Shown here one piece after another: positions 10,915-59,335 of a stretch of 60,383 nucleotides of DNA. Each line of letters begins with the position of its first letter. Position 1 is the first letter of the stretch. The position numbers and the translations under genes were made by a program. The notes beneath the pieces were generated by a model, which made no database searches, was not told the DNA's origin, and worked only from the letters and a program-made list of their open reading frames with translations. This DNA is from Patescibacteria group bacterium (GTDB lineage Bacteria; Patescibacteriota; Patescibacteriia; UBA9570). The stretch lies in NCBI GenBank assembly GCA_024277435.1, contig JAJRVJ010000025.1, positions 1 to 60,383 on the forward strand, given 5' to 3'.

Positions 10915-10960
10915 CTCTATAACTCATACAAATTTAGCTTCCACATAAAATGGAGGACGA

Positions 10961-10988
10961 GGAGGTGGTACATTTGTATCCCACCTCC
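10961..10988 (-). terminator. Terminator-like hairpin immediately after the island-1 ORF
   Basis: ggaggtgg (10961-10968) pairs with ccacctcc (10981-10988) and abuts the TAG stop. The downstream U-run is weak. Confidence 0.4.
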
Positions 10989-11566
10989 TACTTGTCGCTC
11001 CCGGCTTCCGGGTACTCCCTCGTCAGAACCAGCGGATCGCGCTGAGACGAAGTGCGCCACAGAAGGAAGAGCCGGCGATCTCGGCGAAGATTGTAGTCCT
11101 CGTCGATGATGTCGGTCAGCACCGTGCCACTCGGCAGTGCCACATAGATGTAGATGGCATCCGTTGCCGGAACCACCTTCACGATGTGGGGAACCAGTGG
11201 TTCTCCACGCTCGCTTTTTGGAACATGCGAGGGCTCGCCGAACTCGGCGTAAACCTTGCGGCTTACATCGAACACGTCGACCGGGATCACATCCGCAGCA
11301 CCTACACCAGTGGCATAGGGCACGATGATTACCAGGTTGGCTTGGCGAACCAAAGGCGAAGTGTTGGGTTCGAAACGAACGTCTCCAAACATGCGGGGTT
11401 CCTCCTGCAGTGGGGGTACCAGCTGCAGATGGGGCTTCCGCTGCTGTTCAGGTTCGCTCCGAACATCTTCCTGAGAAACCAGAGCTTGGCTCACAGGGTC
11501 TGCCTCACCTCTGAACAGGTGAGTCAGTGGCTGGATAACCAGCGTTTGAAACGCGGCTTTCAGCAT
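10988..11566 (-). CDS. Hypothetical protein encoded by G+C-rich island 1 (foreign composition)
   Basis: 192-aa ORF with an ATG start preceded by gtGAGGTGattc. The line 11041-11100 has 35/60 G+C by hand count, against 15/60 for the host line 10741-10800. I recognised no family. Several overlapping shadow ORFs are present, as is typical of high G+C. Confidence 0.6.
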   Translation of the reverse strand: MLKAAFQTLVIQPLTHLFRGEADPVSQALVSQEDVRSEPEQQRKPHLQLVPPLQEEPRMFGDVRFEPNTSPLVRQANLVIIVPYATGVGAADVIPVDVFDVSRKVYAEFGEPSHVPKSERGEPLVPHIVKVVPATDAIYIYVALPSGTVLTDIIDEDYNLRRDRRLFLLWRTSSQRDPLVLTREYPEAGSDK

Positions 11567-11700
11567 GAATCACCTCACAAGGTGTGGTAAATTGTACGGC
11601 ACGACTAGGGAATAGGGCTTTATGTCGCCCGCGACCCAGTAGAACCAGCACGAAAGACCCCTCAGAGGGGCCCCTCGTATCCCCCAACGGGGGACGAATA

Positions 11701-11729
11701 ACCATACCACTGTATTTAACAAATGTCAA
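11701..11729 (-). promoter_or_regulatory. Sigma70-type promoter for the island-1 gene
   Basis: On the minus strand: TTGACA (11724-11729), a 17-nt spacer, then TATGGT (11701-11706). A leader of about 130 nt follows. Confidence 0.5.
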
Positions 11730-11789
11730 TGGCTAATTGACCATGAATACTACTTTGAAATAAGCACAAAAAACTGGTACACTTCTTGC

Positions 11790-13061
11790 ATGCCAACAAT
11801 AATTACACAAAATCCTACTCTACCCACTGAAGATAAAAAAATAGCACCAAATCCAGGCGCTGGTCCTAAAATCGTTCTCGACCAAACTCCTGAAGAGCCT
11901 ACAACATCTATGCAGCCACATCCAACAACGTCAGATCTTAAACCAGTTCCAAAAGCTACCGCACCAGTAACACAACCAGAGCCAAAACCTTTTCCGGAAA
12001 ATAAACCCCATGTTGAAGCTAATCTTGAAGAACTTGATAAGTTACAAGCTGAACTCACTGCTAAACTTGCACACAAGCATAGTGAAGAAACTAAACTACT
12101 TGAACAAGTCCAAGAACTCATTAAACAAACAGGACAAATTGAAGGTAGTGAAGCTGAACTTCACAAGCAACTGCAAGAATTACAAGACATGCGTAAAAAT
12201 ATTGCTGCGCAACCAGAAAAAGCAGCAGAGCATATACAAAACAGCGCATTCACCACTTTAGTGAAAGATATCGAACCTACTCCAGCTGAACCAGCCGCTC
12301 CAGCAGCAACCAAACCTGATGCACTCAAGCCTGTTGAAATGCAGGTTGATAAAAAAATCCTCAACGCATTGCGACAAACGTTTAGTAATACCGATCCCGC
12401 GATTGCTGCCACTCTCACAGCCAATGCAACAGTTGAACAATCGGACGATGGCGGTGTACTTATTACAGGTAATAATAATCAAGTACATTTTTCTCCAGAG
12501 GATCTTAGGCAGGCAAATATCACTGCTATAGATGTAGCGATGCTTCCAAAAACAACTTTAAAACCTAACGCTATTCCTGAACCTATGCCTGCTCCGGAAA
12601 TTGCGCCAGTACAGTCTGAACCCACTCCTACGCCTAGACCAGTTACTGCAGGCACTATGAATGCTCCTGCGGCAGCGCTATTAGAAAAAATACTTCCTCA
12701 CTTAACATCAGAACAACAAGCTGCGCTCGTGAATCCATCAAGCCTGCAACGATCTGCCGATGGTAATGGAATAGTAATTACCACTCAAACAGGAGACGTA
12801 CATTTAAGTGATGCGGATTTAATTCGCGCTAGTATAACATCAGTAGATCTTCAAAATATTTCTACTAGCACACAACCCGTAGCTACCACCACGGAACCCA
12901 CACCTGCCGAACAACCAGCTCAAACTCAACCAGTGGCTACTGTAGAGCCTACGCCAGCTGTACAAACTACCCCCGAACAACCAGCTCCTGTAGCTGCACC
13001 TGTACAACCAACAGGACCACAACCTACACCTGCCCAACCTGGTCCACCGGCTATTGGGTAG
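11790..13061 (+). CDS. Pro/Thr/Ala-rich low-complexity protein with a duplicated globular module
   Basis: 423 aa. Two related segments are present: ...VEQSDDGGVLITGNNNQVHFSPEDLRQANITAIDV... and ...LQRSADGNGIVITTQTGDVHLSDADLIRASITSVDL.... They are separated and flanked by PxP-rich linkers. Confidence 0.6.
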   Translation: MPTIITQNPTLPTEDKKIAPNPGAGPKIVLDQTPEEPTTSMQPHPTTSDLKPVPKATAPVTQPEPKPFPENKPHVEANLEELDKLQAELTAKLAHKHSEETKLLEQVQELIKQTGQIEGSEAELHKQLQELQDMRKNIAAQPEKAAEHIQNSAFTTLVKDIEPTPAEPAAPAATKPDALKPVEMQVDKKILNALRQTFSNTDPAIAATLTANATVEQSDDGGVLITGNNNQVHFSPEDLRQANITAIDVAMLPKTTLKPNAIPEPMPAPEIAPVQSEPTPTPRPVTAGTMNAPAAALLEKILPHLTSEQQAALVNPSSLQRSADGNGIVITTQTGDVHLSDADLIRASITSVDLQNISTSTQPVATTTEPTPAEQPAQTQPVATVEPTPAVQTTPEQPAPVAAPVQPTGPQPTPAQPGPPAIG

Positions 13062-13080
13062 CACACGCCATGGCGTGCAC

Positions 13081-14385
13081 CTACTGCATTAAACTTTTAC
13101 GATGTAGTTTCCGATAATATGATATCGCAAATCGATGCGCCTCATCGCGCATCCGTTGCACTAAAAATAATCCCTGACTACCGGTTGGTTGGGTAATGGG
13201 CATAGATTCTCCTGGAAGATATAATTCTTCTCGTTTTTTCGCTAATGATACAACTGCAACCTGTTTATCTTTCCAAAAATCTTCTACCGCACTCAACTGC
13301 CCCTTACCTCCATCAATAATCGCCAAATCTGGCAATGGCCAATCGCGCTTTAACCTACGCCTCACAACTTCTTGCAAACTTTTATAATCATCATTCTGTT
13401 TGATATTCTTTATTTTAAAACGACGATATTCACCCTTATCTGGTAAACCGTTAATAAACACCACCATCGAACCAACGGTATGCGATCCTTGTCCATGAGA
13501 GATGTCATAAATCTCTACCCGATGCGGCGGCTTCGCCAAACCAAGCACCTGGGATAATTCCTGTAAACCCATTTGTGGATCAATCGCCTTTAAAGCATAT
13601 TGCTCGGTAAGATATTGCTGTGGTGTTTTTTGTAACGTTTGCAATTGCTCAATCGATTTTAATTGATCACGAATCCGAGCAGCTTTCTCATACAATTGCT
13701 GTTCAGCAGCTTTCGCCATTTCAGATTCCAAAGCTATTACTAACTGTTTGGTGTCACCTTCAAAAAAATCAATGGCTCGATACACCATTTTTTGATAATC
13801 CTCTACAGTGATTTCATTTATACACGGTGCCTTGCAGCGTCCTATATAATATTCCAAGCAAGCTTTCTTCGGTAACTTACTACATGTGCGAAACGGAAAA
13901 ATACTATGCAATAATTGTAAGACCACCCGCGTGCTACGGGCAAATGGATATGGCCCATAATATACTCCGGCTTTTTGTAAGTTTGGCCTACGTACAGCCA
14001 ATACGCGCGGATACTCTTCATGTGTTACGTGAATATATAAAAAACTTTTATCATCTTTCGATAATATATTAAAACGTGGTTGATAATCCTTAATCAGTTG
14101 ATCTTCCAATAATAGAGCGTCTGCCTCTGTACCTGTTTCAATCCAATCTATCGTTTCAATTTGGCCAACCATAATCTTTTTTCGCTCTGAGAGGGTGGTA
14201 GAGACGCGTTGCAACGCGTCTCTACCACCAACAAAATAGGACCGTACACGGTTCTTCAATACCTTAGCCTTCCCCACATACAATACATTCCCTTGTCTAT
14301 TTTTAAATAGGTACACACCCGGGCTATTAGGTAGTTCTTGTAATCGTTTTTGAATAGACTTATCCATGGTGCATGCATTGTACAT
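13081..14385 (-). CDS. uvrC: Excinuclease ABC subunit C (short form, no C-terminal HhH domain)
   Basis: GIY-YIG motif GVYLFKNRQGNVLYVGKAKVLKNRVRSYF, a UVR-like helix and an Endo-V-like domain (IYDISHGQG). A more likely start is MDKSIQ at 14367. Confidence 0.85.
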   Translation of the reverse strand: MYNACTMDKSIQKRLQELPNSPGVYLFKNRQGNVLYVGKAKVLKNRVRSYFVGGRDALQRVSTTLSERKKIMVGQIETIDWIETGTEADALLLEDQLIKDYQPRFNILSKDDKSFLYIHVTHEEYPRVLAVRRPNLQKAGVYYGPYPFARSTRVVLQLLHSIFPFRTCSKLPKKACLEYYIGRCKAPCINEITVEDYQKMVYRAIDFFEGDTKQLVIALESEMAKAAEQQLYEKAARIRDQLKSIEQLQTLQKTPQQYLTEQYALKAIDPQMGLQELSQVLGLAKPPHRVEIYDISHGQGSHTVGSMVVFINGLPDKGEYRRFKIKNIKQNDDYKSLQEVVRRRLKRDWPLPDLAIIDGGKGQLSAVEDFWKDKQVAVVSLAKKREELYLPGESMPITQPTGSQGLFLVQRMRDEAHRFAISYYRKLHRKSLMQ

Positions 14386-14391
14386 GGTTAT

Positions 14392-14430: not shown

Positions 14431-14444
14431 CGCTACCCACACGC

Positions 14445-14473: not shown

Positions 14474-14509
14474 ACTGTAGTTCAAAATCTTAACTCCCTA
14501 TATACATTC

Positions 14510-15712
14510 ATGGATCCAGTAATCTCAATTAAAGGAGCTCGCGTACATAACCTAAAAAACATCTCACTGGACTTACCACGCAACAAGCTTGTGGTTATTA
14601 CTGGCCTATCTGGTTCTGGAAAATCCTCATTAGCGTTCGATACTATTTATGCTGAAGGACAACGTCGTTACGTAGAAAGTCTATCAGCCTACGCTCGACA
14701 ATTTTTAGGGTTAATGGACAAACCTGACGTAGACCGCATCGAGGGTTTATCGCCAGCTATTTCCATTGATCAAAAAACCACCTCCCATAATCCACGATCA
14801 ACTGTTGGTACAGTAACAGAAATTTATGATTACCTTCGATTACTCTATGCTCGCATTGGTACACCGCATTGCCCTAATGATGGTGAAGTTGTACAGAAAC
14901 AAACTATAGGGCAAATTCTTAACAAGATTCTAAAAATTCCCGCTAACTCTAAAATTCTTGTTATCGCACCAATTATTCGTGATAAAAAAGGTGAGCATAA
15001 ATCATTGATAGAAGAAGCTCGTAAATCTGGCTATGTGCGCATTCGCATCGACGGCGCGATGATGCCTATAGAAGAGGCTGAAGATAAAACTCTTGATAAA
15101 AAGAAGAAACATTCTATCGATATAGTAATTGATCGTTTAACCATTTCTCCAAAAATTGATAAAGAACGATTAACCGAATCAATTGAAACTGCTTTAAACT
15201 TAGCTAACGGATTATTACTTATTCATGACTCCGAGGAAGAAAAGGATTTACTATTTTCAGAACATTTCTCTTGTCCAAAGTGTCAGTTTAACTTAGAGGA
15301 TCTAGAGCCGCGGAACTTTTCTTTTAACAGCCCACACGGTGCTTGTGATGATTGTACGGGCCTAGGAACAAAACTAGAAGTAGATCCTGATTTAGTTATT
15401 CCAAATAAAAAATTATCAATCGCAGAAGGCGCCATTCGTCCATGGTCACGCACATCATCGAATCAAACTTGGATGATGCGTATTCTTGAAGCTGTAGCGC
15501 AAGCGAATGGCTTTTCAACTAATGACCCCATAAAAGACCTATCAAAAAAATCTTTGAAAGTTATTCTACATGGAACGGGTAAACAATCCTACGATGTAAA
15601 TAGTCCTTTTGCCACCGGTAAGGTTAAGGCATTTATGACGGAGTATGAAGGTGTTATTCCAAATCTTGAACGCCGCTATAAAGAAACCGAGTCCGAATAC
15701 ATGCGCTCTTAA
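14510..15712 (+). CDS. uvrA: Excinuclease ABC subunit A, N-terminal 400 aa, ending at an in-frame TAA
   Basis: [35 protein letters not shown], a zinc module CPKC...CDDC, and ...[19 protein letters not shown]. Confidence 0.9.
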
Positions 15713-15724: not shown

Positions 15725-17344
15725 ATGCGCATATTTGATTGCCCAAGTTGTAACGGAAAACGATTAAATCCAGTTGCGTTAGCCGTTACTATTAATGACA
15801 TTAATATTGCTGAAGTAACCACTAAGAGTATCGATGATGTAAACAAGTACTTTACTAATCTTACACTCAACGCACGCCAAAATAAAATTGCTAAGCAAGT
15901 ACTGCAAGAGGTGCAGAATCGTTTAAATTTTCTGCATAATGTTGGCCTCGATTATCTTACCCTCAATCGCAGTACAAACACTCTCTCTGGTGGTGAAGCC
16001 CAGCGTATTCGTTTAGCAACACAAATCGGATCCTCATTAACTGGCGTTATCTACATTTTGGATGAACCATCAATTGGCTTACATCAACGTGATAACAATC
16101 GCTTAATTAAAACATTAAAAGAATTACGTGACCTTGGTAACACTGTATTAGTTGTTGAGCATGATGAAGAAACTATTCGAGAAGCCGACCTTGTTGTCGA
16201 TATTGGCCCTGGAGCCGGCAAACATGGTGGTGAGATAGTTGCCATTGGTACGCCAAAGCAAATTGAAAAATCTACCAAATCCCTCACTGGTAAATATCTG
16301 TCTGTAAAAGAAAGTATCCCCGTTCCCAAAAAATATCGTAAAGGCAACGGCAAAGCTATTGAAGTGGTTAACGCTGAAGAGTTTAATCTAAAAAGTGTCA
16401 CTGCTAAATTTCCACTAGGTATGTTGGTATGTATTAGTGGTATTTCTGGATCAGGTAAATCCACCTTACTCATTGATATTCTTGCTAAAGCATTAGCGCG
16501 TCACTATCACAACGCTAAAGATTACCCAGGTAAGCATGAAGAGATTAAGGGGCTTGAACATATCAATAAAGTAATTCATATCGATCAATCTCCAATTGGC
16601 CGAACCCCACGCTCGAACCCCGCTACCTATACCGGCGTATTTACCTATATTCGCGACATCTTCACTCAAGTACCTGAAGCAAAGATGCGTGGTTACAAAG
16701 CAGGGCGCTTCTCATTTAATGTAAAGGGTGGTCGCTGTGAGGCTTGCCAAGGTGATGGCGTACAAAAAATTGAAATGCACCTCTTACCAGATGTATATGT
16801 AAAATGTGATGAATGTCATGGAAGACGCTATAACAAACAAGCGCTAGAAATTGAATACAAAAATAAAACAATTTCTAATGTGCTAGAAATGACTGTAGAA
16901 GAAGCGCTTAAGTTTTTTGATAACATTCCTTCGATTCGTGAAAAACTACAAACCCTATTTGATGTTGGTCTCGGCTATATCCATCTCGGGCAAAATGCTA
17001 CTACATTATCTGGTGGTGAAGCCCAGCGCATCAAGTTAGCTACCGAACTTTCACGTCGTGCAACTGGAAAAACTCTCTACATTCTAGATGAGCCTACTAC
17101 CGGATTACATTTCGCTGATGTTAAACGACTACTACAAGTATTAAATAAACTTGTTGATAAAGGAAATAGTGTATTCGTTATCGAACATAATCTTGATGTA
17201 ATCAAATCCGCTGATTGGATTATCGATCTTGGCCCTGATGGTGGTGATAAAGGGGGAGAAATTGTAGCTACTGGCACACCACGTGAGGTAGCTAAAGTTG
17301 CTAGATCTATTACCGGACAATTCCTCAAAAAAATGCTAAAGTAG
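15725..17344 (+). CDS. uvrA: Excinuclease ABC subunit A, C-terminal 539 aa, in the same frame as 14510..15712
   Basis: [21 protein letters not shown], a second Walker [19 protein letters not shown] and a second [12 protein letters not shown]. Confidence 0.9.
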
Positions 17345-18309: not shown

Positions 18310-20214
18310 TTATTCCCGATATGGGCCGCGTAACTCATATTCATTTGTTGTGGCAGCGACGTACATTCGAATGCTATTATTATCCCCCGCTAGATCAATC
18401 CCTCTTCCGCTGAACACATAATATGGTTCTATCCGTCTATTCAACTCATCAAATACATACTCTAAAGCTACATCATCAATAATAATTTCACTCAATCTAT
18501 CTTCTTGATATTGGTGATTCCATTGCGAATATACCCGTAAATAGCGTTGATATTCAGCCCGCTCATCAGTTGTTGGATAATAAAAGTCTTCAAGAATATT
18601 CACTGCTTGATCCAACGAAATAATATCGGTAATTGTCGATCGCACCATATGCTCACGTAATGTATCAAGCCGATCTACCTTTATACTTGTTACGGTATTG
18701 CCATGTAATTGCACACTAATACCACGAAAACGCATTGGCATTGTATCTTCAGCTGAATCTCCATAACGTAATAGTGTATGCACTGGATAGTAAACAAACT
18801 GCCAATCCTGAATAGAATCCTGACTCCCATCTTTACACACCGCATCTTTTTTAATTCTCTGACCATCGGAACTTATCCGAATTGCTCGCAGCTCATCTTC
18901 TTCAACCTCAACAAAATTATGTGAGCGTAAAAAATCATATCCAATCTCTCTAATATCATCCTCATCATATTGATCTGTTAAGTTCTCTAAATCACATATA
19001 GCAGCCTGGCGCATTTGGTAATCCACTCGACCATCATTATTAAATGAAACAAAGAGGGGTTTAAAATCTGTATCAGAATCCTCAATATAATACGTGCCAT
19101 TCACATATGTGAAATCATTTAACGGCAATGAGAAAAAATGACGGAATGCAGCAAGTTGCAACTGCTCCTTTGTAAGAGCTTCTGGAACAGTATAGGTAAA
19201 TGTTTCAGTAATCGCACGATAATCCTCGGTGATTATATTTACATCAATATCTGGCCGCACCTCTTCCCCGCTACCAGACTCTGTTAAAGTGTCCTTCACG
19301 TAATTCGTTCCATACAACCTACCTTCGGCCTCCGTGAGTGATTCTTTTGTTTTTTGAATATCTGGTAATGCCCCACTATTTAATAGTGCTTGAGGACGCT
19401 GATCAAGAATTGGTCGAATTATAGGCTTCGTCTCTTCCACTACTTCTGTAACAATCGGCTGTGGTGCATTCACATACCAGGTAGCCACACTAACAACAGC
19501 AATAATACTAATCACAAATCCTAACGGAATTGGGCCAAGAAATGAACGCCACCATGATCGACGTACAAATGTTGGAGAAGATGATTTTCCACCCATTACC
19601 TCACGATTCATGCGTGTTAATTTAGAACTCGATAAAGAAGCAACGCTAGACCTACTAGAAAACAGTTTCTGTAGCGCTTGCTCAGGATCTTCCATACTGT
19701 GTTGTAAACGCTTTAATACAGATGTATAAATTTCTTCGATCTGTGTAAATTCCTTATTCAATACCAACCCAATTTCATAACTTGAAAGATGCGGGCCATG
19801 CCATAATTCGATAACTGTTAATGAATCAAAATCCAAATGCTGTAAGGCCTGCCATAAATGTAATTGATCGGCTGATAATTTCTTACGTAGCGTTTGTGGA
19901 ACCTGACGCTGCGTTTTTGTAAACTTCGTTCGATGACGACGAGCCTGACTATATGCTAATGAAAATAAATACGAACGATATGTTACTTGCCCTGGTACAA
20001 AAGCATGAAAATATTTGTACGCCTTCCAAAATACATACTGCGTTGTATCTTCCGTAAGATGTGTATGATAAAATAGCGTACTATAACAATAGCTATATAT
20101 TTGATTACTATAGAGTTTGAATAACTCAATAAATGCGCGATCAAGATCCTCATCTTTAGCGTGCAATATATCAGCTTCAGTAAGTGATTGAGCTTTGGGT
20201 TTACGAGGTGTCAT
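18310..20214 (-). CDS. ECF sigma-70-like domain fused to a TM helix and a large extracytoplasmic domain
   Basis: The N-terminus has region-2-like (LFKLYSNQIYSYCYS...EDTTQYVFWKAYKYF) and region-4-like (LTVIELWHGPHLSSYEIGLVLNKEFTQIEEIYTSVLKRL) sequence. A TM helix follows (GPIPLGFVISIIAVVSVATWYV), then about 390 aa. Confidence 0.65.
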   Translation of the reverse strand: MTPRKPKAQSLTEADILHAKDEDLDRAFIELFKLYSNQIYSYCYSTLFYHTHLTEDTTQYVFWKAYKYFHAFVPGQVTYRSYLFSLAYSQARRHRTKFTKTQRQVPQTLRKKLSADQLHLWQALQHLDFDSLTVIELWHGPHLSSYEIGLVLNKEFTQIEEIYTSVLKRLQHSMEDPEQALQKLFSSRSSVASLSSSKLTRMNREVMGGKSSSPTFVRRSWWRSFLGPIPLGFVISIIAVVSVATWYVNAPQPIVTEVVEETKPIIRPILDQRPQALLNSGALPDIQKTKESLTEAEGRLYGTNYVKDTLTESGSGEEVRPDIDVNIITEDYRAITETFTYTVPEALTKEQLQLAAFRHFFSLPLNDFTYVNGTYYIEDSDTDFKPLFVSFNNDGRVDYQMRQAAICDLENLTDQYDEDDIREIGYDFLRSHNFVEVEEDELRAIRISSDGQRIKKDAVCKDGSQDSIQDWQFVYYPVHTLLRYGDSAEDTMPMRFRGISVQLHGNTVTSIKVDRLDTLREHMVRSTITDIISLDQAVNILEDFYYPTTDERAEYQRYLRVYSQWNHQYQEDRLSEIIIDDVALEYVFDELNRRIEPYYVFSGRGIDLAGDNNSIRMYVAATTNEYELRGPYRE

Positions 20215-20555: not shown

Positions 20556-20627
20556 CGCGGGGTGGAGCAGTGGCAGCTCGGGTGGCTCATAACCATCAGG
20601 TCGAGGGTTCGAATCCCTCCCCCGCAA
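20556..20627 (+). tRNA. tRNA-Met (anticodon CAT), probably the initiator
   Basis: A cloverleaf was built by hand: acceptor cgcgggg/ccccgca with a C1-A72 mismatch, D arm gagc-agtggca-gctc, anticodon arm ggtgg-ctCATaa-ccatc, and T arm gaggg-ttcgaat-ccctc. No CCA is encoded. Confidence 0.85.
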
Positions 20628-21978: not shown

Positions 21979-22869
21979 ATGCACATACTCGTAGTCTATA
22001 ATCCGGTTGCCGGCTTTGCCTTTAAATTAGAAAATGCCAAAAATGTTATTCAGCGCTATTTAGATAAACGCGATATTAAATATACGTGGCTAGAAACCGA
22101 TAAAGAAACGAATCAACATATTGTTGATGAATTACACAAAAACTATGAACGTATTCTCGTATGTGGTGGCGATGGTACCGTTCGCGAAATTGCCAACGAA
22201 CTCATCCGCCTCAAAAGCCCAACACCATTAGCCATCATGCCATTAGGAACTATGAATGTAATGGCATTAAGCTTAAATATTCCACTAACAATTCGGCGGG
22301 CACTGCATTATGCGTTGTATAAACCATCTACCTCCCTTGATGTTGGTTTAGTAAACAATAAACGGCATTTCTTTATTGCCTGCGGCGTTGGTTATGACGC
22401 AGAAATAATGCACGGTACCAAACGCTATATTAAACGCTGGTTAGGTCCATTTTCCTACTGGATCGTAGCGTTTGCTAAATCGTGGCGCAACCAACCTATT
22501 AAGGGCACTCTTACCACAGACTATGGTAGTGAGAATATTTCTATAAGTACACTAATAAGTTTTAATGTAAAAACTCTGATTGCTCGCCATCCATTAATAC
22601 GCCGGCAACCACATGCTGGAAAACTGGATATCCTGATTGCTGATTATATATCTGTAGGAAATGTACTACGATTACTATGGTATATTGTTTGGGATAAACC
22701 CAGAGACACACCACCACTGCGATTATTTACTACATCACAACTTACCTTTACAGCCGATGAACCATTTCAATATGAAATTGATGGTGATGTATTTCAAGAT
22801 ACATCTGTTACTATTACCCTAGTTCCCAACGCATTAAATATAATATGTCCACCACAAAACAAGCGCTAA
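21979..22869 (+). CDS. Diacylglycerol/lipid kinase family protein (YegS/DagK type)
   Basis: VVYNPVAG, VCGGDGTVREIAN and PLGTMNV. Confidence 0.8.
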   Translation: MHILVVYNPVAGFAFKLENAKNVIQRYLDKRDIKYTWLETDKETNQHIVDELHKNYERILVCGGDGTVREIANELIRLKSPTPLAIMPLGTMNVMALSLNIPLTIRRALHYALYKPSTSLDVGLVNNKRHFFIACGVGYDAEIMHGTKRYIKRWLGPFSYWIVAFAKSWRNQPIKGTLTTDYGSENISISTLISFNVKTLIARHPLIRRQPHAGKLDILIADYISVGNVLRLLWYIVWDKPRDTPPLRLFTTSQLTFTADEPFQYEIDGDVFQDTSVTITLVPNALNIICPPQNKR

Positions 22870-27857: not shown

Positions 27858-28574
27858 CTATTCTATTTGATTATCTGTAGGTTGCGCTTCATCAGTTATA
27901 TTATCAATAGCACCCTGCACTACCACCTGACGAAACTCAACCCGTTCTTTACTACGCTTTGTTTTAGCAACAACCTTAAATACATTAATACCCTCTTGTA
28001 ATAATACATCTTCACTAAATGCGCCATCCTCTGTAACATCAATTGATTTATCATTAATTTGAACGGTAGCTTCAGAAATTGTTTCTCCACTAATAGTCAC
28101 CTTACGATCATCAATATGTAATTGTTCGGGAATTGGGTCCAAATACAACTCTGGAGGCTGAATGATATTGGCCACAGCAAAGCTTACATAAGAGCCTACC
28201 GCAACGATGCCAAAAATCACTGCCAACAATATTACTACCATACGCACCTGTAGTGGTTGCTTAGCTAAATGTGAAGTAGTTGTTGGAATATCAGGATTAG
28301 CCTCATATACTGCTAACTCCTCACGTAGCAATTGTTCTGTATAGTGTTTTCCAAGCTTCAAGTATACAGCGTATTTGCGAACATAATTTTTCACAAACAC
28401 ACTTCCTGGTAAAGCTGTGTAATTACTCTCTTCAATAGCCTTGATATATTCTGGACGAATACGCAGATCTTCCGCTACCACCTCTATATCTATTCCTGCA
28501 TCATTACGGACGCGCCGTAATCGTTCACCCAAGATTTCTGCTCCAGTTACTGTTCGGCGATTAAAATCGTTCAT
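27858..28574 (-). CDS. RodZ-like HTH (XRE-type) membrane protein
   Basis: An N-terminal HTH (LGERLRRVRNDAGIDIEVVAEDLRIRPEYIKAIEE), a TM helix and a C-terminal beta-rich domain. Its start overlaps the ftsK stop (ATGA). Confidence 0.65.
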   Translation of the reverse strand: MNDFNRRTVTGAEILGERLRRVRNDAGIDIEVVAEDLRIRPEYIKAIEESNYTALPGSVFVKNYVRKYAVYLKLGKHYTEQLLREELAVYEANPDIPTTTSHLAKQPLQVRMVVILLAVIFGIVAVGSYVSFAVANIIQPPELYLDPIPEQLHIDDRKVTISGETISEATVQINDKSIDVTEDGAFSEDVLLQEGINVFKVVAKTKRSKERVEFRQVVVQGAIDNITDEAQPTDNQIE

Positions 28575-30391
28575 GATTGATCATCATCAGTGTCGTCATC
28601 CGGTTCATCATCCTCATCACTATCTTCGTCAATAACTTCATCTTCATCAACTTCTTCATATTCTATTTCATCATCCTCATCGAGATCTTCCTCGGCCACC
28701 TCATAGTCTTCATCAAAATTATCTTGAGATTCATCATACGAGGACTCAGTCATATCTTGCCCTCCAAGCACCTCTCTTGGCTTCGCTCCATTGGCTGGCC
28801 CAATGAACCCCTGCTCCTCTAAGATGTCGAGAATTCTAGCTGCTCTAGCATATCCAACCCGTAACCGCCGTTGCAGTAATGAGGCTGAAGCCTTCTGCGC
28901 CTTTACAATTACATCCTTAGCCTGTGGTAATAACTCATCCTGATCTTCACTACTGTCACTAGATTTGCTACCTGGTATATTTGTATTCACCTTAGTAGTA
29001 ACCACCTCATCATCATACTCGGCTTTAGCTTTACTCTTCAAGTACTGCACAACATTACCCACATCTTCTTCATCTACCAACGCCCCTTGTACACGTGTAG
29101 GCTTTGGTGAAGCAGCGCTTAAGTACAACATATCTCCACGGCCCAGTAACTTCTCCGCGCCAGACATATCGATAATTGTTCGAGAATCAACTAATGAAGC
29201 CGTATTGAAGGCGCAACGTGATGTAATATTGGCTTTAATTAAACCGGTAATCACATCAACTGATGGGCGTTGTGTAGCAAGCACTAAATGAATACCTACC
29301 GCACGAGCCATTTGTGCCAATCGCACAATCGCCGCCTCTACCTCTCTTGGAGAAGTTGCCATCAAGTCTGCTAATTCATCAATCACAAATACAATGAATG
29401 GCATGGTTGCGTCTGGATTTGCTTTATTATACCCAGCAATATCACGCTTCTTTGCATTTGATAACACATCGTAACGCCTATCCATTTCATTCACACACCA
29501 ACGCAATGCGTTAATTGTTTTCTGTACATTAGTAATTACCGGGGTAAGTAAATGAGGAATATTATCATACATTGTAAATTCCACACGCTTCGGATCAACC
29601 ATAATCAACTTCAAATCATCTGGTCCATTCTGATACAACAAGCTAATCAAAATTGTATTAATACATACCGATTTACCAGAGCCAGTTGCACCAGCCACAA
29701 GTAAATGAGGCATCTTATCAAGATTCGCAATTAATGGCTTACCAGATACATCTCTACCAAAGGGAATACTAAGATGACTTTTACGATTCTTGAATTCTTC
29801 AGATTGTAATAATTCGTGTAAACCAACTTGCGCAGCTGCTACATTAGGTACTTCTATACCAATAAGTGCTTTTCCAGGAATAGGAGCTTCAATTCTAATT
29901 GGATGAGCAGCTAATGCTAATGCTAAATCGTTTTGCAAAGACATAACTTGCGAAACTTTCACACCACTCGCTGGCTTAAATGTATACTGCGTAACGGTAG
30001 GGCCGATATTTACAGCACCCATATCTACATCAATACCAAAGTTCTTCAATGTTTTATGAATAATCTCTTTATTACTCTCAATATCTCCACTAGTTGGCTT
30101 GCTACGCTTCTTTGATAACAGGCTCAATGGTAAATCTATCTGCCGATGCCTCTTAGACAAATGAATTAACTCCATCTGCTCAGGATCCTCCGCTTCTCCA
30201 CCATCCTCTTCTTCATCGCTTTCATCAATATCTTCTTCCACTGTATCTTCATCCTCATCTTCTTCAGTGCCCTCCTCATATTCATCTTCATCCTCTACGT
30301 CTCGTTGAGAAAAATCATTAATTACAGTTTCTTCATTTTCGTCTTCATAATAATCTTCTTCGACTTGCTCTACTACACGCTCTCTTGCCAC
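28571..30391 (-). CDS. ftsK: DNA translocase FtsK/SpoIIIE: acidic linker, motor and gamma domains
   Basis: Walker A VAGATGSGKSV, Walker B FIVFVIDELADL, and the gamma winged helix SASLLQRRLRVGYARAARILDILEE. A GTG start directly follows the TAA of 30392..30961. Confidence 0.9.
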   Translation of the reverse strand: MARERVVEQVEEDYYEDENEETVINDFSQRDVEDEDEYEEGTEEDEDEDTVEEDIDESDEEEDGGEAEDPEQMELIHLSKRHRQIDLPLSLLSKKRSKPTSGDIESNKEIIHKTLKNFGIDVDMGAVNIGPTVTQYTFKPASGVKVSQVMSLQNDLALALAAHPIRIEAPIPGKALIGIEVPNVAAAQVGLHELLQSEEFKNRKSHLSIPFGRDVSGKPLIANLDKMPHLLVAGATGSGKSVCINTILISLLYQNGPDDLKLIMVDPKRVEFTMYDNIPHLLTPVITNVQKTINALRWCVNEMDRRYDVLSNAKKRDIAGYNKANPDATMPFIVFVIDELADLMATSPREVEAAIVRLAQMARAVGIHLVLATQRPSVDVITGLIKANITSRCAFNTASLVDSRTIIDMSGAEKLLGRGDMLYLSAASPKPTRVQGALVDEEDVGNVVQYLKSKAKAEYDDEVVTTKVNTNIPGSKSSDSSEDQDELLPQAKDVIVKAQKASASLLQRRLRVGYARAARILDILEEQGFIGPANGAKPREVLGGQDMTESSYDESQDNFDEDYEVAEEDLDEDDEIEYEEVDEDEVIDEDSDEDDEPDDDTDDDQS

Positions 30392-30961
30392 TTATAAGCG
30401 ATGTCGTGCGCTAGAGAAAAATGCAACAATGAAACGCAATATCTTACCAAGTACTGTTTGAGCAGGAATATATTGAATAAGATGATCAATTGATGTATTG
30501 AATACAATCAAAATCGAGATAACTAATAGAGCCAACAATACAACTACAGCTACAGCAATACTAGCAAACTCCCGAAATAAATAGGTAATAGCTATACCTA
30601 CATATCCACCGGACTCAGCCGCAAATACATCAACTAAGCCAAATAACGAAACCGCAAGCACTCCTATACCTATAATGTATAATGCTGGAACTTCACGATC
30701 TGCAGGATACAGCAATGTATACACTATCAATGCAAAGATGAATGGTACTAAGTATCTACCAACTCCAACTAGTTTATTTAAAACCAAATCAATCAACTCA
30801 CCAATTTCGCCAGCAAAGCCAAATAAGCTAAATGTAATGATAATTCCCAAAGCTAACAATACGATACCGAGAATACCTCTTTGGGTATCTGGATCGATGT
30901 CTAAACTAGAGAATGATGGTAATTTTGGGCTAAATCTAGCACCTTTTTTCTTCTTTGCCAC
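30392..30961 (-). CDS. ftsK: FtsK N-terminal 4-TM membrane domain, a separate ORF in frame with 28571..30391
   Basis: 189 aa with a basic N-terminus MAKKKKGARF and four TM helices, matching the FtsK_4TM architecture. Confidence 0.7.
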   Translation of the reverse strand: MAKKKKGARFSPKLPSFSSLDIDPDTQRGILGIVLLALGIIITFSLFGFAGEIGELIDLVLNKLVGVGRYLVPFIFALIVYTLLYPADREVPALYIIGIGVLAVSLFGLVDVFAAESGGYVGIAITYLFREFASIAVAVVVLLALLVISILIVFNTSIDHLIQYIPAQTVLGKILRFIVAFFSSARHRL

Positions 30962-33373: not shown

Positions 33374-34099
33374 TTATTTACCCAGTGTTTCTTCTAATAA
33401 AGCAAAGGCCACTGTTGAATCTACTCCACCGGATACTAATAAGAACACGTGTTTATCTGGACCGATGGTTTTTTGAATATCTGCAATGATCTCTTTTTCA
33501 ATTGCTGCGATATTCCAATCTGCCTTCACTTTACAAATATCAAATAAAAAGTTTTCCAACATTTCTAGCCCATGTTCTGTATGATGCACTTCTAGATGAA
33601 ATTGAAAACTCCAAATCTGTTTTTCTACATTACGCATCGCTGCCACTTCACAATCGTGCGTACTACCAATAACCTCAAACCCTTCTGGTACTTCCGTGAC
33701 TACATCCCAGTGACTCATCCATACCCGCTCTTTATCAGCTAACCCCTTAAACACATCGTCCTTATTCTTTATTTTCACATCGGCTTGGCCATATTCTTTT
33801 GTGATACCCTTTGCAACTTTTCCACCAAAATGAAGGGCCGTTACCTGGTGTCCATAACATAATCCAAGAACCGGTACGCCCATCTCAAATACTCCTGGAT
33901 CATATTCAATTGCTCCTTCGCCAATTGTACTTTTAGGACCACCGGAAAGAATTACGCCCTTGGCATCAGCATAAGCTGAAGCCGACATATCTGGTGTGAA
34001 TATTTTTGCTAGAACGTTATGTTGTCGTACCCGTCGCGCAATAAGATGAGCGAACTGGGAGCCAAAATCAATAACGGCTATATAATCATGTTGTTGCAT
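33374..34099 (-). CDS. guaA: GMP synthase, glutamine amidotransferase domain plus PP-loop, ending at an in-frame TAA
   Basis: GLCYGHQ (catalytic Cys), FQFHLEV, and the PP-loop LLVSGGVDSTVAFALL. Confidence 0.9.
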   Translation of the reverse strand: MQQHDYIAVIDFGSQFAHLIARRVRQHNVLAKIFTPDMSASAYADAKGVILSGGPKSTIGEGAIEYDPGVFEMGVPVLGLCYGHQVTALHFGGKVAKGITKEYGQADVKIKNKDDVFKGLADKERVWMSHWDVVTEVPEGFEVIGSTHDCEVAAMRNVEKQIWSFQFHLEVHHTEHGLEMLENFLFDICKVKADWNIAAIEKEIIADIQKTIGPDKHVFLLVSGGVDSTVAFALLEETLGK

Positions 34100-42489: not shown

Positions 42490-43014
42490 CTAAATACCAA
42501 TATTTCGGTAACCCAGCGGGAAGGTGATTAACCAACCCGCCGGAGTGAATCCCGCGCTACCAAGTAGTTCACGTACCACGTTGCGCTTCAGTGCCGGCAC
42601 CTTGATGGCCGGCAAGCCAATTGGGTGCAGCAGCGCAATGGCTGCACTTAATAGTAGCGAAGCACGCCACTCTGAAGCAGCCTCCAACCAAACAAGTATC
42701 GCGAATAGCTCCCAAAATACTTCATTCAGCGTACCAGGCCACGAAGCGGTAGTCCTGAGCAATGTGCTTTGCATCCCACGACAGAATTTTCGCTGACTCT
42801 GGTTGTGCGCGTAGCACTGCGCGAAAAACATCTGTCCGATCACATCAAAAAACCGATGAGGCGGATGGAACCTCAGATACTCCACGCAGGCCTCAAACAG
42901 CTCGCGAATCTCAGTCACATCCACCAAACCCAACAAATCGAGCTCGGCCAATAACCTTTCGATATCTGTCGCCTGCTCATCATGGGTACGCACGGTAATC
43001 CATACATCCTCCAC
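42490..43014 (-). CDS. Hypothetical protein encoded by G+C-rich island 2 (foreign composition), inserted between purE and purB
   Basis: 174-aa ORF with a GTG start. The line 42601-42660 has 33/60 G+C by hand count. The C-terminal half is hydrophobic and Trp-rich (EVFWELFAILVWLEAASEW...LLLSAAIALLHPIGLPAI). I recognised no family, and the start is uncertain. Confidence 0.5.
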   Translation of the reverse strand: MEDVWITVRTHDEQATDIERLLAELDLLGLVDVTEIRELFEACVEYLRFHPPHRFFDVIGQMFFAQCYAHNQSQRKFCRGMQSTLLRTTASWPGTLNEVFWELFAILVWLEAASEWRASLLLSAAIALLHPIGLPAIKVPALKRNVVRELLGSAGFTPAGWLITFPLGYRNIGI

Positions 43015-43190
43015 TAACGGAACTCATTTCCACGCTGTATATGTTAATAGCATTCACACATACAATACGAAATTGATAAGGTCATAACAAAAAAGAGCTA
43101 TCAATACAATATCTCCTTTTTCCTGTTTGAAGATGATATGAGGACCAACCTTATAAGAGGCTGCACAGAACGGCCATAAATTTGGCCCCC

Positions 43191-43218
43191 GTTATATCAT
43201 TAGATACCTAGGCGTCAA
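43191..43218 (-). promoter_or_regulatory. Candidate sigma70-type promoter upstream of island 2
   Basis: On the minus strand: TTGACG (43213-43218), a 16-nt spacer, then TATAAC (43191-43196). It lies 16 nt downstream of the purE stop. Confidence 0.35.
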
Positions 43219-43233
43219 GACTTATGTGTAGCC

Positions 43234-43644
43234 TTATACTGCGAAAATCCGCTCGATAGCCTGTGCCGCATTCTTTGGCTCTAGCACAGTAAGTACCGGA
43301 GTATTAGATGGCATCTGTAGTGTAGAATTGATATTCACCATAAAATCATCTTTATCTTTAAATGGTGGTACTGCTAACACTGGATGCTTTGTATTACACG
43401 CTACTACACCAGACAGAGCATTCGAACGCCCCGCTACCGTAACATAGACAATTGAATCACCAGAATTTTCCCAGCCCTCAATTAATTCTAATAGCCGTTT
43501 TGTTTCCTTATGCGCAGAACACGCTTCCCATTCATGGATAATGTTTACTTCATCAAGAGCTAATTCAATTTTTTGAACGAACTCTTGGTCGGATTTTGAT
43601 CCTGAAATGATAATTACTTTATTCATGCAACTAGTATAGCACAA
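43234..43644 (-). CDS. purE: AIR carboxylase/mutase PurE (short form)
   Basis: VIIISGSKSD, SAHK, and VTVAGRSNALSGVVACNTKHPVLAVP. The likely start is MNKVII at 43626. No purK is present in the cluster. Confidence 0.8.
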   Translation of the reverse strand: MCYTSCMNKVIIISGSKSDQEFVQKIELALDEVNIIHEWEACSAHKETKRLLELIEGWENSGDSIVYVTVAGRSNALSGVVACNTKHPVLAVPPFKDKDDFMVNINSTLQMPSNTPVLTVLEPKNAAQAIERIFAV

Positions 43645-50575: not shown

Positions 50576-55096
<4,521 letters not shown>

Positions 55097-56823: not shown

Positions 56824-56852
56824 AAATATCTCATATTAATTCTTGTGCATAC

Positions 56853-56881
56853 AACATAGCTGCCGAACTCATTATTGTCAA
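56853..56881 (-). promoter_or_regulatory. Sigma70-type promoter of the FN3 gene pair
   Basis: On the minus strand: TTGACA (56876-56881), a 17-nt spacer, then TATGTT (56853-56858). Confidence 0.55.
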
Positions 56882-57179
56882 GCGGTTATTGACGCAGAGC
56901 TCATTGCCGTTGGATATTCACAACCCGGTTTTGTCCACGACGAATCATCCTTTTTATGCGTTTTGATTTTCGCTCTGCAACGTAAATATACAATAGTATG
57001 TCTAATAAATTCCTTCCCCCGCAGCCCCTTCCTTTTTGTCCTTATTCGCGCCTTCCTATTCGGGAGAATTTTTCGAAAAAATTCGGCATAACATACATAA
57101 ACGTCGGCTTTTTTAAAGCCATTTTAAAGTATATCTTGTAATTGTTCTTTGGTTGGAGCAATAGTCTCAGAAATGGTAT

Positions 57180-58457
57180 TTATTGCTTAGGACTAGCTTC
57201 ACGTAATGCCATATCCATCCATAATATAGTTGATTGATGTACTGGCTTTGGGAAAGTGATACGAAGCGTATCTTGTTTTCCACCATGTGCAGATTCTACT
57301 TCTGTACCATCTTCAAGCGTTAGTGTATCGAGTACTAGTTCATACTCTTCACCCGGCATCATTACATGTACTGTCTCACCTTTGTAGATTTCATTTTTTA
57401 CAAGCACATCAGCCGTGTGCTCATCAATAATATTTGTAATAGTTCCAACAAATTTCTCCGTAGATTTTTCTGTACGTTTTTGTAAACTCTGTTTTGGAGA
57501 TCCAAAGAAGAAACCAGTATCAAAATCCCGAGAAGAACGTCGCAACAACTGTGCCTTTAATTCTGCTAGTCGATCTTTTTTATTTGAATCATCACTACCT
57601 ATTAAATCAATCGCCTCACGATAGGCTTTTACAATTTGTGCCGCATAAAATTCTCCGCGACCACGGCCTTCAATTTTGAATGAAACAATTCCTGCGTCAG
57701 CTAATTCATCAAGCCTATCTACTAGGCACATATCGTTAGCATTAAATATGTACGTGCCATTTTCATCCTCTTCTACAGTAATTATTTCATCCGGTCTCTG
57801 TGATTCTACAAATTGCATTTCTTTTGGCTTCACCTCTTTATAATGCCACCGGCAATTATTGGCGCACGATCCATGATTGGCTTTGTGTGAATCTGTCATA
57901 TAGGAAGATAACATACAGCGTCCAGAATATGCCATGCACTGAGCACCATGTACGAATGTTTCAATTTCAATATCTGGAAACTGATCATACATTTCACCAA
58001 TTTCTCGTAAATTTAATTCTCGTGCCAAAATCACTCGCTCGGCTCCTTGATCAGCCCAAAACTTCACGCCCAATGAATTAGTAATACTGGCCTGTGTAGA
58101 AATATGAATTGGTAGCGATGGCGCTACTTCTTTAATAAGTGAAAATACTCCGGCGTCGGAAACAATCAATGCATCCGGTTTAATTTCTTCAAGTTTTTTT
58201 AACGCTCTAGTAATTACCTTAATGTGATGATTGTGCGCGAACACATTTACTGTAACGTACACTTTCTTTCCACGCTCATGCGCATACTCCACCATTTCCT
58301 GAAGCTGTTCATAGGAAAAGTTCCCTTTATGTTGGCGTAAAGCAAATATATTCGTTCCACAAAAAATCGCATCAGCTCCGTAATCAATAGCAAGCTTACC
58401 CTTACGAAGGGTTCCGGCTGGTGCTAATAATTCTGGTTTATCGAGTGTATGAGCCAT
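57180..58457 (-). CDS. Peptidase U32 family protein
   Basis: MAHTLDKPELLAPAGTLRKGKLAIDYGADAIFCG... is a typical U32 N-terminus. The track ORF (to 58748) is extended artefactually into the G+C-rich island. Confidence 0.85.
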   Translation of the reverse strand: MAHTLDKPELLAPAGTLRKGKLAIDYGADAIFCGTNIFALRQHKGNFSYEQLQEMVEYAHERGKKVYVTVNVFAHNHHIKVITRALKKLEEIKPDALIVSDAGVFSLIKEVAPSLPIHISTQASITNSLGVKFWADQGAERVILARELNLREIGEMYDQFPDIEIETFVHGAQCMAYSGRCMLSSYMTDSHKANHGSCANNCRWHYKEVKPKEMQFVESQRPDEIITVEEDENGTYIFNANDMCLVDRLDELADAGIVSFKIEGRGRGEFYAAQIVKAYREAIDLIGSDDSNKKDRLAELKAQLLRRSSRDFDTGFFFGSPKQSLQKRTEKSTEKFVGTITNIIDEHTADVLVKNEIYKGETVHVMMPGEEYELVLDTLTLEDGTEVESAHGGKQDTLRITFPKPVHQSTILWMDMALREASPKQ

Positions 58458-58552
58458 AGGGTTGATAGAGTACATAAATATTGTTAAAGGCGCAAGACAA
58501 ATTATAGAAAGATCGAGCGGGACAGCACTCAATCCTCCATGATTGAAAATGA

Positions 58553-58592
58553 ACTTCATGCCTGTCCCGAACTCCGCGGAGTTACATGAAGT
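58553..58592 (-). terminator. Nested hairpin terminator after the island-3 ORF
   Basis: Outer stem acttcatg (58553-58560) pairs with catgaagt (58585-58592). The inner element is the perfect palindrome aactccgcggagtt (58570-58583). A T-rich tract follows on the minus strand. Confidence 0.5.
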
Positions 58593-58596
58593 ATGG

Positions 58597-59220
58597 CTAG
58601 CGGTACCAGCCGTTGGCGGTAAGGACAACCATGACCAGCATGGCGAAGACCTCAGCGTAGACGTCCACGGTCCGTTCCGTCCGTTCCTGCCATGCCTCCA
58701 ACGGCGGCAGGTGAATGAAGCCGGCCTTGCGCCGATCATTGATATCACGCCACGTCAGCAAGTGATAGTGCGCGGCATTGCAGAGGAAGCGACCGTCGTA
58801 GCCGTTGAGCGCCAGCCCCGGACTACCGCTGGGCAGCGCGGCCCGCTTGATAAGTGCACTGAGATCGCCCCAGCCAGCTTCCCAATGAAGGCCTGAGAGC
58901 AGAACCTCAGGGCCATTCGGAAGCATGTCCTGAGGAGGATCCTGCTTCTGCACGTCCTTGCCGCTAGCAAGACGGACGGCCATCTGTTCGATCGACATGA
59001 AGTGATCGAAGCCTTCGCCGAGGCCGATCACTCTGTCGTGGTTATTCAGCCAGCCCTCATCGAAGATCTCCTTGAGCGCAGCCCAGTTCGTGGGCACCTC
59101 AATGACGCTAGCAACATGACCAGAGTCCTTAATGTACTCACCAAGCTTGCGCGCGACAGAGATACTGCCATTCGTGCTTCGACCTCCGAATGGACCGAAG
59201 CAAAGGATTGCGATTTTCAA
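58597..59220 (-). CDS. Peptidase C15 (pyroglutamyl-peptidase I)-like protein encoded by G+C-rich island 3
   Basis: 207 aa: MKIAILCFGPFGG, VIGLGEGFDHFMSIEQMAV (Glu), DGRFLCNAAHY (Cys) and KAGFIHLPP (His). The start is TTG, preceded by AAGGAGGTGggat. The line 58801-58860 has 42/60 G+C by hand count. Confidence 0.7.
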   Translation of the reverse strand: MKIAILCFGPFGGRSTNGSISVARKLGEYIKDSGHVASVIEVPTNWAALKEIFDEGWLNNHDRVIGLGEGFDHFMSIEQMAVRLASGKDVQKQDPPQDMLPNGPEVLLSGLHWEAGWGDLSALIKRAALPSGSPGLALNGYDGRFLCNAAHYHLLTWRDINDRRKAGFIHLPPLEAWQERTERTVDVYAEVFAMLVMVVLTANGWYR

Positions 59221-59250
59221 ATCCCACCTCCTTGGGTTTGTGGGACCATT

Positions 59251-59279
59251 AGATTATGTGAAACATCATAATAAATCAA
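59251..59279 (-). promoter_or_regulatory. Sigma70-type promoter of the island-3 gene
   Basis: On the minus strand: TTGATT (59274-59279), a 17-nt spacer, then TAATCT (59251-59256). Confidence 0.45.
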
Positions 59280-59335
59280 GTCTAAACGCAATCTAGAATT
59301 GCTATATTAGGCCAATATTAGACACAAAAAAGGAC

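Follow-up and report, generated by a model that had tools for sequence, protein, structure and literature searches.

The DNA analyzed here, referred to as the window, is a stretch of 60,383 nt from contig JAJRVJ010000025.1 of a Patescibacteria group bacterium (GCA_024277435.1). It is a housekeeping chromosomal region with groEL, recA, uvrABC and the purine biosynthesis (pur) operon, in which three G+C-rich intergenic blocks (i.e., islands 1, 2 and 3) each carry a single open reading frame (ORF) on the minus strand. The PurL protein (50576-52924) is closest to those of Candidatus Kerfeldbacteria metagenome-assembled genomes (MAGs) of the candidate phyla radiation (CPR)/Patescibacteria, with 73-74% identity, and by its sequence the host is a Candidatus Kerfeldbacteria genome.

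G+C-rich islands and the translation signals of their host

The mean G+C content of the window is 39.7%. In 300-nt windows across the 60 kb (mean 0.397, standard deviation 0.042), the mean was exceeded by more than three standard deviations in just three stretches, 10901-11700, 42501-42900 and 58451-59250. A 100-nt profile placed the G+C-rich cores at about 10950-11720 (0.51-0.63), 42500-43010 (0.49-0.60) and 58510-59235 (0.52-0.68), with a sharp shift in composition, within 50-100 nt, at their borders. The islands are spaced 16-31 kb apart. Their ORFs encode proteins of 192 aa (island 1, 10988-11566), 174 aa (island 2, 42490-43014) and 207 aa (island 3, 58597-59220), which are mutually unrelated in pairwise comparison. 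The G+C content at the third codon position (GC3; GC1 and GC2 for the first and second) is 0.641, 0.575 and 0.700, respectively (z of +11.9, +9.7 and +13.8), compared to 0.286±0.030 (range 0.227-0.361) for 46 host ORFs, and the fit to host codon usage has z values of -10.7, -6.6 and -11.9. GC2 is the lowest codon position in every island ORF frame, as coding DNA would show, and each ORF fills its block exactly; the probability that 192 codons at 58% G+C lack a stop codon, estimated from base composition, is ~1e-3.

The genes of the host itself lack Shine-Dalgarno (SD) sites. None is present upstream of all the window housekeeping genes inspected, and a 4-mer SD core occurs within 20 nt upstream of the start in just 2 of the 37 long ATG-started ORFs in the window, where chance alone would give ~10%. 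A -10-like hexamer (TAYRHT) is found within 15 nt of the ATG in 10 of the same 37 ORFs (chance ~5%), which indicates leaderless or near-leaderless mRNAs. The relatives L010-L016 are equally SD-free. GGAGG-type sites are found in islands 1 and 3 and in inserts of two other genomes, L001 and L012, which are described below. As a separate observation, TATACT-like -10 boxes lie 5-12 nt before the ATG of many host genes, for example the ORFs at 1021-2088, 6824-7741, 9905-10855, 18310-20214, 21979-22869 and 33374-34099, which again indicates expression of the leaderless type across the genome.

A first-pass annotation of this DNA, made from the letters alone, had reported three blocks that differ sharply from their surroundings, each with one minus-strand ORF of 174-207 aa, and had proposed formal composition and codon statistics as a check. 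The blocks proved to be the sole G+C outliers in the window, with one such ORF in each, and their codon usage departs clearly from that of the host. All three sites were thus placed correctly, although the range given for island 2 (to 43233) was too wide because the G+C content of 43015-43233 (0.33-0.43) is host-like. The contrast that it drew between the SD sites of islands 1 and 3 (GAGGTG and AAGGAGGTG) and an SD-poor host was borne out by the 37 host ORFs, in which such sites are rarer than expected by chance.

Genes and signals of the islands

In island 1, a promoter-like sequence on the minus strand (TTGACA-17-TATGGT, 11729-11701; 10 of 12 matches, extended TG) is the only island promoter that passed the formal sigma-70 scan. 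It sits in the A+T-rich junction, outside the G+C-rich DNA, and points into the block. The G+C-rich, structured leader on the same strand (11567-11700) contains three hairpins and an additional CACCU/AGGUG hairpin (11584-11571) that sequesters the SD site GAGGTG (11576-11571). This leader folds with a z of -3.56, none of 200 shuffles being as stable, and a second estimate gave -3.78. An alternative and better spaced start is provided by AGGAGG at 11406-11401, followed after 8 nt by the ATG at 11392 (M59); it would yield a protein of 134 aa behind a ~310-nt leader, whose folding z is -3.4 to -3.8. Given that the first 58 codons have atypical GC1/GC2/GC3 values of 0.79/0.35/0.57 and that residues 1-70 are predicted to be disordered, the true product of island 1 may be the 134-aa protein.

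The RNA of the island 1 ORF folds with a z of -5.1, compared to -0.6 to -2.4 for three host genes, and the values for the 776-nt block and the first 58 codons are -9.8 (20 shuffles) and about -3.8, respectively. The antisense strand also folds well (z of -3.6) and its frame is fully open; an amino-acid-composition score did not discriminate between sense and antisense coding. Past the stop, the minus-strand hairpin GGAGGTGG-12 nt-CCACCTCC (10988-10961) overlaps the TAG and contains the 11-mer AGGAGGTGGGA. An intrinsic terminator, in which CCCGGG...CCCGGG precedes a T-run (10911-10893), is common to island 1 and the convergent gene at 9905-10855.

The ORF of island 2 lies between purE and purB and begins with GTG at 43014 or GTG at 42993. 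The only SD-like sequence, GGAGGA at 43012-43007, is awkwardly placed, as it overlaps the first GTG and precedes the next in-frame GTG by 13 nt. Formal scans of island 2 found no promoter or terminator but sub-threshold promoter candidates only, and the gene is probably transcribed by read-through from purE and the pur operon. An A+T-rich, terminator-like hairpin on the minus strand (43083-43146), a stem followed by a T-run, lies after purE and upstream of island 2; it belongs to host-like DNA outside the G+C-rich block, and a weak STnc390 alignment shows the same stem and T-run. The folding z values of islands 2 (-2.8) and 3 (-2.85) are just outside the values of the host genes.

The proteins of islands 1 and 2 had no homologue in a word-indexed search of 5.8e9 protein clusters, and an exhaustive HMMER search of 1.84e9 representatives with the island 1 protein returned one spurious low-complexity match only. 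Neither protein matched Pfam, NCBIfam, PADLOC or PHROGs, and neither was matched in plasmids, phages (tblastn and blastn) or viral contigs. The island 2 ORFan is predicted to be all-helical. Single-sequence AlphaFold2 models of islands 1 and 2, with predicted local distance difference test (pLDDT) scores of 44 and 43.5, were too poor for a fold search. Their sequences suggest that both products would be small cytoplasmic or membrane-associated proteins.

Island 3 encodes a recognizable enzyme. Its protein matches the Pfam family PF01470 (Peptidase_C15) over residues 1-174 with 32.9 bits (cut-off 22.7; E 8.6e-8), and ~175 residues align to solved pyroglutamyl peptidases I (PDB 6ltq, E 5e-8; 3giu). 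The C15 triad, for which the motifs E-x-x-A-x-N, F/Y-x-C-N and F-I/V-H-x-P were checked, corresponds to Glu78 (SIEQMAV), Cys147 (FLCN) and His170 (FIHLP) in the alignment with 6ltq and 3giu, and these three residues are invariant across the proteins P0003, P0004 and P0005. In addition to the Glu-Cys-His triad, the protein shares the GxxPFGG N-terminal motif with pyroglutamyl-peptidase I (Pcp), from which it differs by extra sequence inserted at about residues 85-135 and by a hydrophobic tail at the C-terminus. Its best NCBIfam score, 36.3 bits, is far below the cut-offs of 199 (PRK13197, a "subfamily" model) and 201.75 (the equivalog TIGR00504), which places it in a divergent C15 subfamily. 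Judged by these conserved residues, island 3 probably encodes an active, divergent C15 cysteine peptidase that would most likely remove N-terminal pyroglutamate from peptides. The word-indexed search gave two homologues, P0004 with 54% identity and the next, with 33%, in a contig of 65% G+C.

The island 3 ORF starts with TTG (ATG in the closest homologue). It is preceded on the minus strand by the SD site AAGGAGGTGGGAT (59233-59221; core AAGGAGGTG at 59233-59225), which is conserved in the homologue on L001 as AAGGAGGTGGGGT, and by a weak promoter candidate, TTGATT-17-TAATCT (59279-59251), that fell below the scan threshold. Upstream of island 3, the A+T-rich gap contains GGCCATTTTTTAT/ATAAAAAATGGCC (59387-59413), a perfect palindrome of 13 nt that is probably a bidirectional terminator.

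Island 3 and its homologue on L001 can be aligned from the SD site (AAGGAGGTGGG) to ~90-115 nt beyond the stop. The non-coding part of this alignment includes a conserved 3' element of ~85 nt on the minus strand (58592-58508), made up of hairpin 1 (58592-58553), whose inner stem co-varies, and the terminator-like hairpin 2 (58537-58508). One inner stem differs between the two sequences by compensatory substitutions. CGGGACAG and CUGUCCCG are invariant between them and could pair loop to loop; in island 3, such a pairing of 7-8 bp is possible between CGGGACAG (58569-58562) and CTGTCCCG (58525-58518). Comparison of these two sequences alone thus suggests covariation and a pseudoknot in the 3' element. 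P0004 is encoded on L001, an unrelated 2.3-kb contig that is present in an NCBI assembly and in two Logan runs, where its gene is itself an island of 63-67% G+C within DNA of 30-45% G+C. Its neighbors differ from those in the window, being a DUF2196 gene and tRNA-Asn, and nothing in the window corresponds to the flanks of L001.

Because G+C-rich blocks in A+T-rich genomes are often non-coding RNAs (ncRNAs), the possibility that the islands are known ncRNA genes was tested, and it was rejected. Rfam gave no family for the 3' element. For the islands it gave none at gathering score, and relaxing the limit to an E of 5 added chance-level miRNA/sRNA matches only; the sole window match at gathering score is tRNA-Met, and the sole tRNA lies at 20556. 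A covariance model of the 3' element (R1) retrieved nothing beyond the element itself from the window and 18 loci. An exact-pattern scan returned no matches in viral contigs and three in JGI (Joint Genome Institute) metagenome data, all of which were plain chance hairpins.

Three further expectations of the first-pass annotation concerned island signals and placement. A promoter of its own for every block holds for island 1, by the formal scan, and fails for islands 2 and 3, where the candidates are sub-threshold. The hairpins that it saw just past the stops of islands 1 and 3 are present at 10988-10961 and 58592-58508, and island 2 does lie inside the purine operon.

Relatives, comparable inserts and traces of mobility

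The gene order folD-purA-purL-fumAB-malic enzyme-purM-purQ-purC-(hypothetical gene)-purB-purF-purD is conserved in the relatives of the host. No homologue of island 2 was found between purC and purB in the relatives L010-L016, which are 60-75% identical. This interval is variable: L014 has nothing there, L010 and L015 have a hypothetical gene, L012 has an unrelated 400-aa gene, and the window has a hypothetical gene, purE and island 2. The first-pass annotation had suggested a check for empty sites in related genomes; at purC-purB an island 2 homologue is missing, but the interval varies and the relatives also lack purE there. The retrieved relatives cover syntenic DNA for island 2 only. The purE gene itself (43234-43644) has host-like composition and no counterpart at this position in the retrieved relatives.

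A clean empty site is shown only for an analogous insert, island B of L012 versus L016. L012, a Kerfeldbacteria relative, carries two separate single-gene inserts that are G+C-rich and have SD sites. Island A (3190-3780) holds an autoinducer-synthase/GNAT-like gene with a GGAGGG SD site. Island B (5676-6080, minus strand) holds an ORFan with an N-terminal hydrophobic segment, a TTGACA promoter, the SD site TAGGAGGA and a post-stop hairpin, GGGGAGGTGGCG/CGCCGCCTCCCC. Island B is located between a histidine kinase gene and folD, whose orthologues are adjacent in L016 (empty site at 1611-1698), and L016 keeps the folD promoter and leader hairpin of L012. Given this adjacency and the same folD leader, ~730 nt of L012 represent a clean insertion. 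The folD leader (L012 6150-6226; L016 1640-1697), with a TATATA -10 box and a CCCCG...CGGGG hairpin followed by a T-run just before the ATG, is conserved and may be an attenuator. G+C peaks in L015, L021 and L022 were considered as cassettes and rejected, as they fall in Gly-, Ala-, Pro- or Arg-rich ORF segments, those of L021 and L022 within long host proteins; peaks of L019 were left out. We observed that all three island ORFs end in TAG (10988-10990, 42490-42492 and 58597-58599), as do two of the three cassettes of other genomes (L001 1560-1562; L012 3778-3780). The stops of 44 other ORFs were TAA in 30, TAG in 11 and TGA in 3, TGA being strikingly rare in the host.

As the first-pass annotation had stated, mobility genes and flanking repeats were not seen. 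No integrase, transposase, tyrosine recombinase or phage domain was found in window ORFs of at least 100 aa, and searches for flanking direct or inverted repeats and target-site duplications at the islands gave short, chance-level matches only. PHROGs gave no significant match and phage DNA searches gave none. Pairs of the attC motifs R'' (RYYYAAC) and R' (GTTRRRY) 50-150 nt apart were absent from both strands of six cassettes, in a test that used consensus regular expressions and no attC covariance model. The 11-mer AGGAGGTGGGA occurs in the window at island borders only, with 3 matches versus 0.4 expected, a number equaled in 1 of 100 shuffles. It lies in the SD site of island 3 (59222-59232) and over the stop of island 1 (10960-10989), where its near-complement forms the other arm of the hairpin. 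The cassette of L001 is bracketed by two copies of AGGAGGTGGG (943-952 and 1757-1766), of which the right one is complementary to tRNA-Asn at its 3' end.

Several observations concern the chromosome around the islands. The window contains a near-complete, clustered de novo purine pathway (32282-55096; purF, D, N, H, B, E, C, Q, M, L and A, guaA in two parts, folD, fumarase and malic enzyme), which is unusual for such reduced bacteria and whose order is kept in the Kerfeldbacteria relatives. Two genes are interrupted by in-frame TAA codons, uvrA at 15710-15712 (halves 14510-15712 and 15725-17344, same frame) and ftsK at 30392-30394 (halves 30392-30961 and 28571-30391, same frame); these interruptions could be pseudogenes, sequencing errors, genuine splits or read-through. 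The records of the MAGs L012, L013, L015, L016 and L020 are titled "uncultured Gammaproteobacteria bacterium," yet their PurL and gene order are those of Kerfeldbacteria or other CPR bacteria, and the records are probably mislabelled.

Origin of the islands and what they mean for CPR bacteria

Foreign coding composition, a foreign-type ribosome-binding site (RBS), absence from the retrieved relatives, the same kind of insert with an empty site in related genomes and an intact catalytic triad in island 3 are observed. The explanation that we favor, with moderate confidence, is that three single genes were independently acquired by horizontal transfer from SD-using donors of higher G+C content and inserted into intergenic Kerfeldbacteria DNA. 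The donors would have had a moderately high G+C content of ~55-65%. Competence and type IV pilus machinery are typical of CPR bacteria, although neither was sighted in the window; short foreign DNA could plausibly have been taken up by such machinery and integrated through illegitimate recombination. Deletion in a streamlined genome would then have trimmed the inserts to the unit under selection, i.e., RBS, ORF and 3' hairpin. Transcription would start from the A+T-rich junction promoter in island 1 and from the weak one in island 3, and would reach island 2 by read-through of the pur operon, while the imported SD site would direct translation.

Several points weigh against this explanation. 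No donor was found, and neither the 5.8e9 clusters nor plasmids, phages and viral contigs yielded a homologue of islands 1 and 2; if an abundant neighbor had recently donated the genes, relatives of them should be present in the databases. The nearest relative of island 3, at 54% identity, is itself an island in low-G+C DNA that shares non-coding ends with it. That both copies are G+C-rich at such identity implies that the transfers were independent and the donors diverged and unsampled, or else that some force maintains G+C. For an mRNA, island 1 has an unusual amount of structure. Expression of the islands is predicted from sequence features, and their mRNAs would be SD-led in an SD-free host. 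Finally, the six junctions are known from assembled sequence alone.

The missing donors and the L001 island with shared ends keep in consideration a mobile cassette pool among CPR-type genomes, integron-like or undescribed, with a recombinase encoded elsewhere and the 3' element as the recombination or mobilization site, which we regard as unlikely. It would account for the identical segment limits of island 3 and its L001 homologue, with the SD site at one end and the ~85-nt 3' element at the other, in contexts that are unrelated, for a 3' element that is invariant in most aligned columns and appears at least as conserved as the coding DNA, and for the persistence of high G+C content in both copies. 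Integron cassettes hold one gene within 0.6-0.8 kb, mostly an ORFan, and single attC sites without an integrase also exist. The islands resemble them in size (0.6-0.8 kb), in ORFan cargo, in having one ORF with little 5' DNA, and in the folded element past the stop. The confinement of AGGAGGTGGGA to the island borders and the two copies of AGGAGGTGGG around the L001 cassette point the same way. However, the six cassettes have no canonical attC core pair, no IntI or array was found, the window has neither integrase or transposase nor flanking repeats, and the 3' element was otherwise not found in the window, the 18 loci, viral or JGI contigs. No two islands have related 3' structures, and those of islands 1 and 2 are unlike that of island 3. 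Moreover, AGGAGGTGGGA corresponds to the SD consensus, which is expected beside foreign genes; we therefore regard it as a lead but do not take it to indicate a recombination site. A bolder version, to which we assign a rather low probability, is a pool of G+C-rich one-gene cassettes that enter SD-free, low-G+C CPR-type hosts by an undescribed in-trans mechanism, possibly RNA-mediated. The unit would then consist of the SD site, the ORF and the pseudoknotted 3' element, with that element or AGGAGGTGGGA as the insertion site, and the G+C content would stay high because the cassettes spend most of their time on a replicon, or in a host, that is high in G+C and unsampled. If this were true, the ORFan cargo and the imported SD sites would set apart a group of accessory genes that are translated in a special way.

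The excess folding of island 1 likewise keeps alive a reading of islands 1 and possibly 2 as large structured RNAs or long cis-regulatory leaders, with the ORF as a by-product of the G+C content, which we also consider rather improbable. The strong folding of the whole block and of the ORF, the z of ~-3.8 for each of the leader and the first 58 codons, the atypical composition and predicted disorder of those codons, the absence of a protein homologue and the fully open antisense frame are all consistent with it. An SD site with ATG, a second, well-spaced SD site with ATG at M59, an ORF that fills the block and a correctly oriented terminator fit a protein gene instead. The antisense also folds, which suggests DNA-level palindromes and not a strand-specific RNA; no Rfam family emerged even at E up to 5, and islands 2 and 3 are barely past the host range. 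Long residence in the lineage, with G+C kept high by selection (e.g., for mRNA structure or slow translation), would agree with the structure of island 1 and with two G+C-rich copies of island 3 at 54% identity. It is very unlikely given that the genes are absent from the sampled Kerfeldbacteria relatives and all the other genomes searched, that the genomic context differs between the window and L001, that amino-acid content does not explain GC3 values of 0.57-0.70 versus 0.29 in the host, and that L012 and L016 show an insertion polymorphism. Equally small is the probability of an assembly or binning artefact in which high-G+C pieces were misjoined into a low-G+C contig. Although the assembly is of metagenome type, composition changes sharply within 50-100 nt and no homologue ties islands 1 and 2 to any lineage, six mis-joins would be needed, all in intergenic DNA and without junction repeats able to cause them. 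Every block contains a single complete ORF equipped with a start, an RBS, a stop and a hairpin; the promoter of island 1, located in the A+T-rich flank, is directed into its block, and the same architecture is seen in independent assemblies, L001 (three data sets) and L012.

The first-pass annotation had proposed repeated acquisition of cassettes from a high-G+C donor, possibly the host of an episymbiont. Repeated foreign acquisition is in keeping with the composition, the SD sites and the recurrence in L012 and L001. Since no donor was found and the gene most similar to that of island 3 forms an island in low-G+C DNA instead of belonging to a high-G+C genome, an episymbiont's host as donor stays a guess. 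The idea that the cassettes form a dispersed functional set receives no support, as the islands have no mutual similarity and no common motif save the SD-like 11-mer. A chimeric or engineered contig, its other suggestion, is unlikely, because the borders match gene signals at the six junctions and the pattern recurs elsewhere.

The layout of the islands recalls phage morons, which are reportedly autonomous one-gene units between prophage genes (described by Hendrix, Juhala and others). As in morons, one ORF of deviant G+C content, with a promoter-like site (in island 1), an RBS and a downstream hairpin or terminator, lies between resident genes. The degree of autonomy varies: island 1 has a promoter and a terminator, island 3 a terminator-like hairpin and a sub-threshold promoter, and island 2 neither. 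Unlike morons, the islands are located outside any prophage, among housekeeping genes, and no phage genes were found with them.

Individually transferred genes have already been documented in Patescibacteria (PMC12455944). Like the genomic islets described there, the inserts are single foreign genes in syntenic CPR chromosomes, recognized by their deviant composition and by their absence from the relatives retrieved. The islands in the window most likely represent a clear case of a known kind of event, the gain of genomic islets by a CPR genome through horizontal transfer. They differ from the PMC12455944 islets in that donor-type SD sites are kept in an SD-free lineage, that two of the three are ORFans without a donor, and that one shares a structured 3' element with an island of another genome. 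The imported SD sites, the donorless ORFan cargo and the conserved candidate 3' structure are the features that make these islands notable.

The islands are useful as strain-level presence/absence markers and for quality checks of MAG assemblies, and the 3' element common to the islands of two genomes is a candidate RNA or DNA motif for CPR genomes. CPR bacteria are believed to rely on other cells, and how they gain genes is little understood. The absence of a donor for two of the genes suggests an unsampled gene pool, e.g., mobile elements or rare partners. Unameliorated foreign genes with SD sites in a core chromosomal region provide a natural test of whether the SD-free, largely leaderless translation of CPR bacteria can use SD-led mRNAs, which bears on whether genes of the island type form a regulated or a poorly expressed class.

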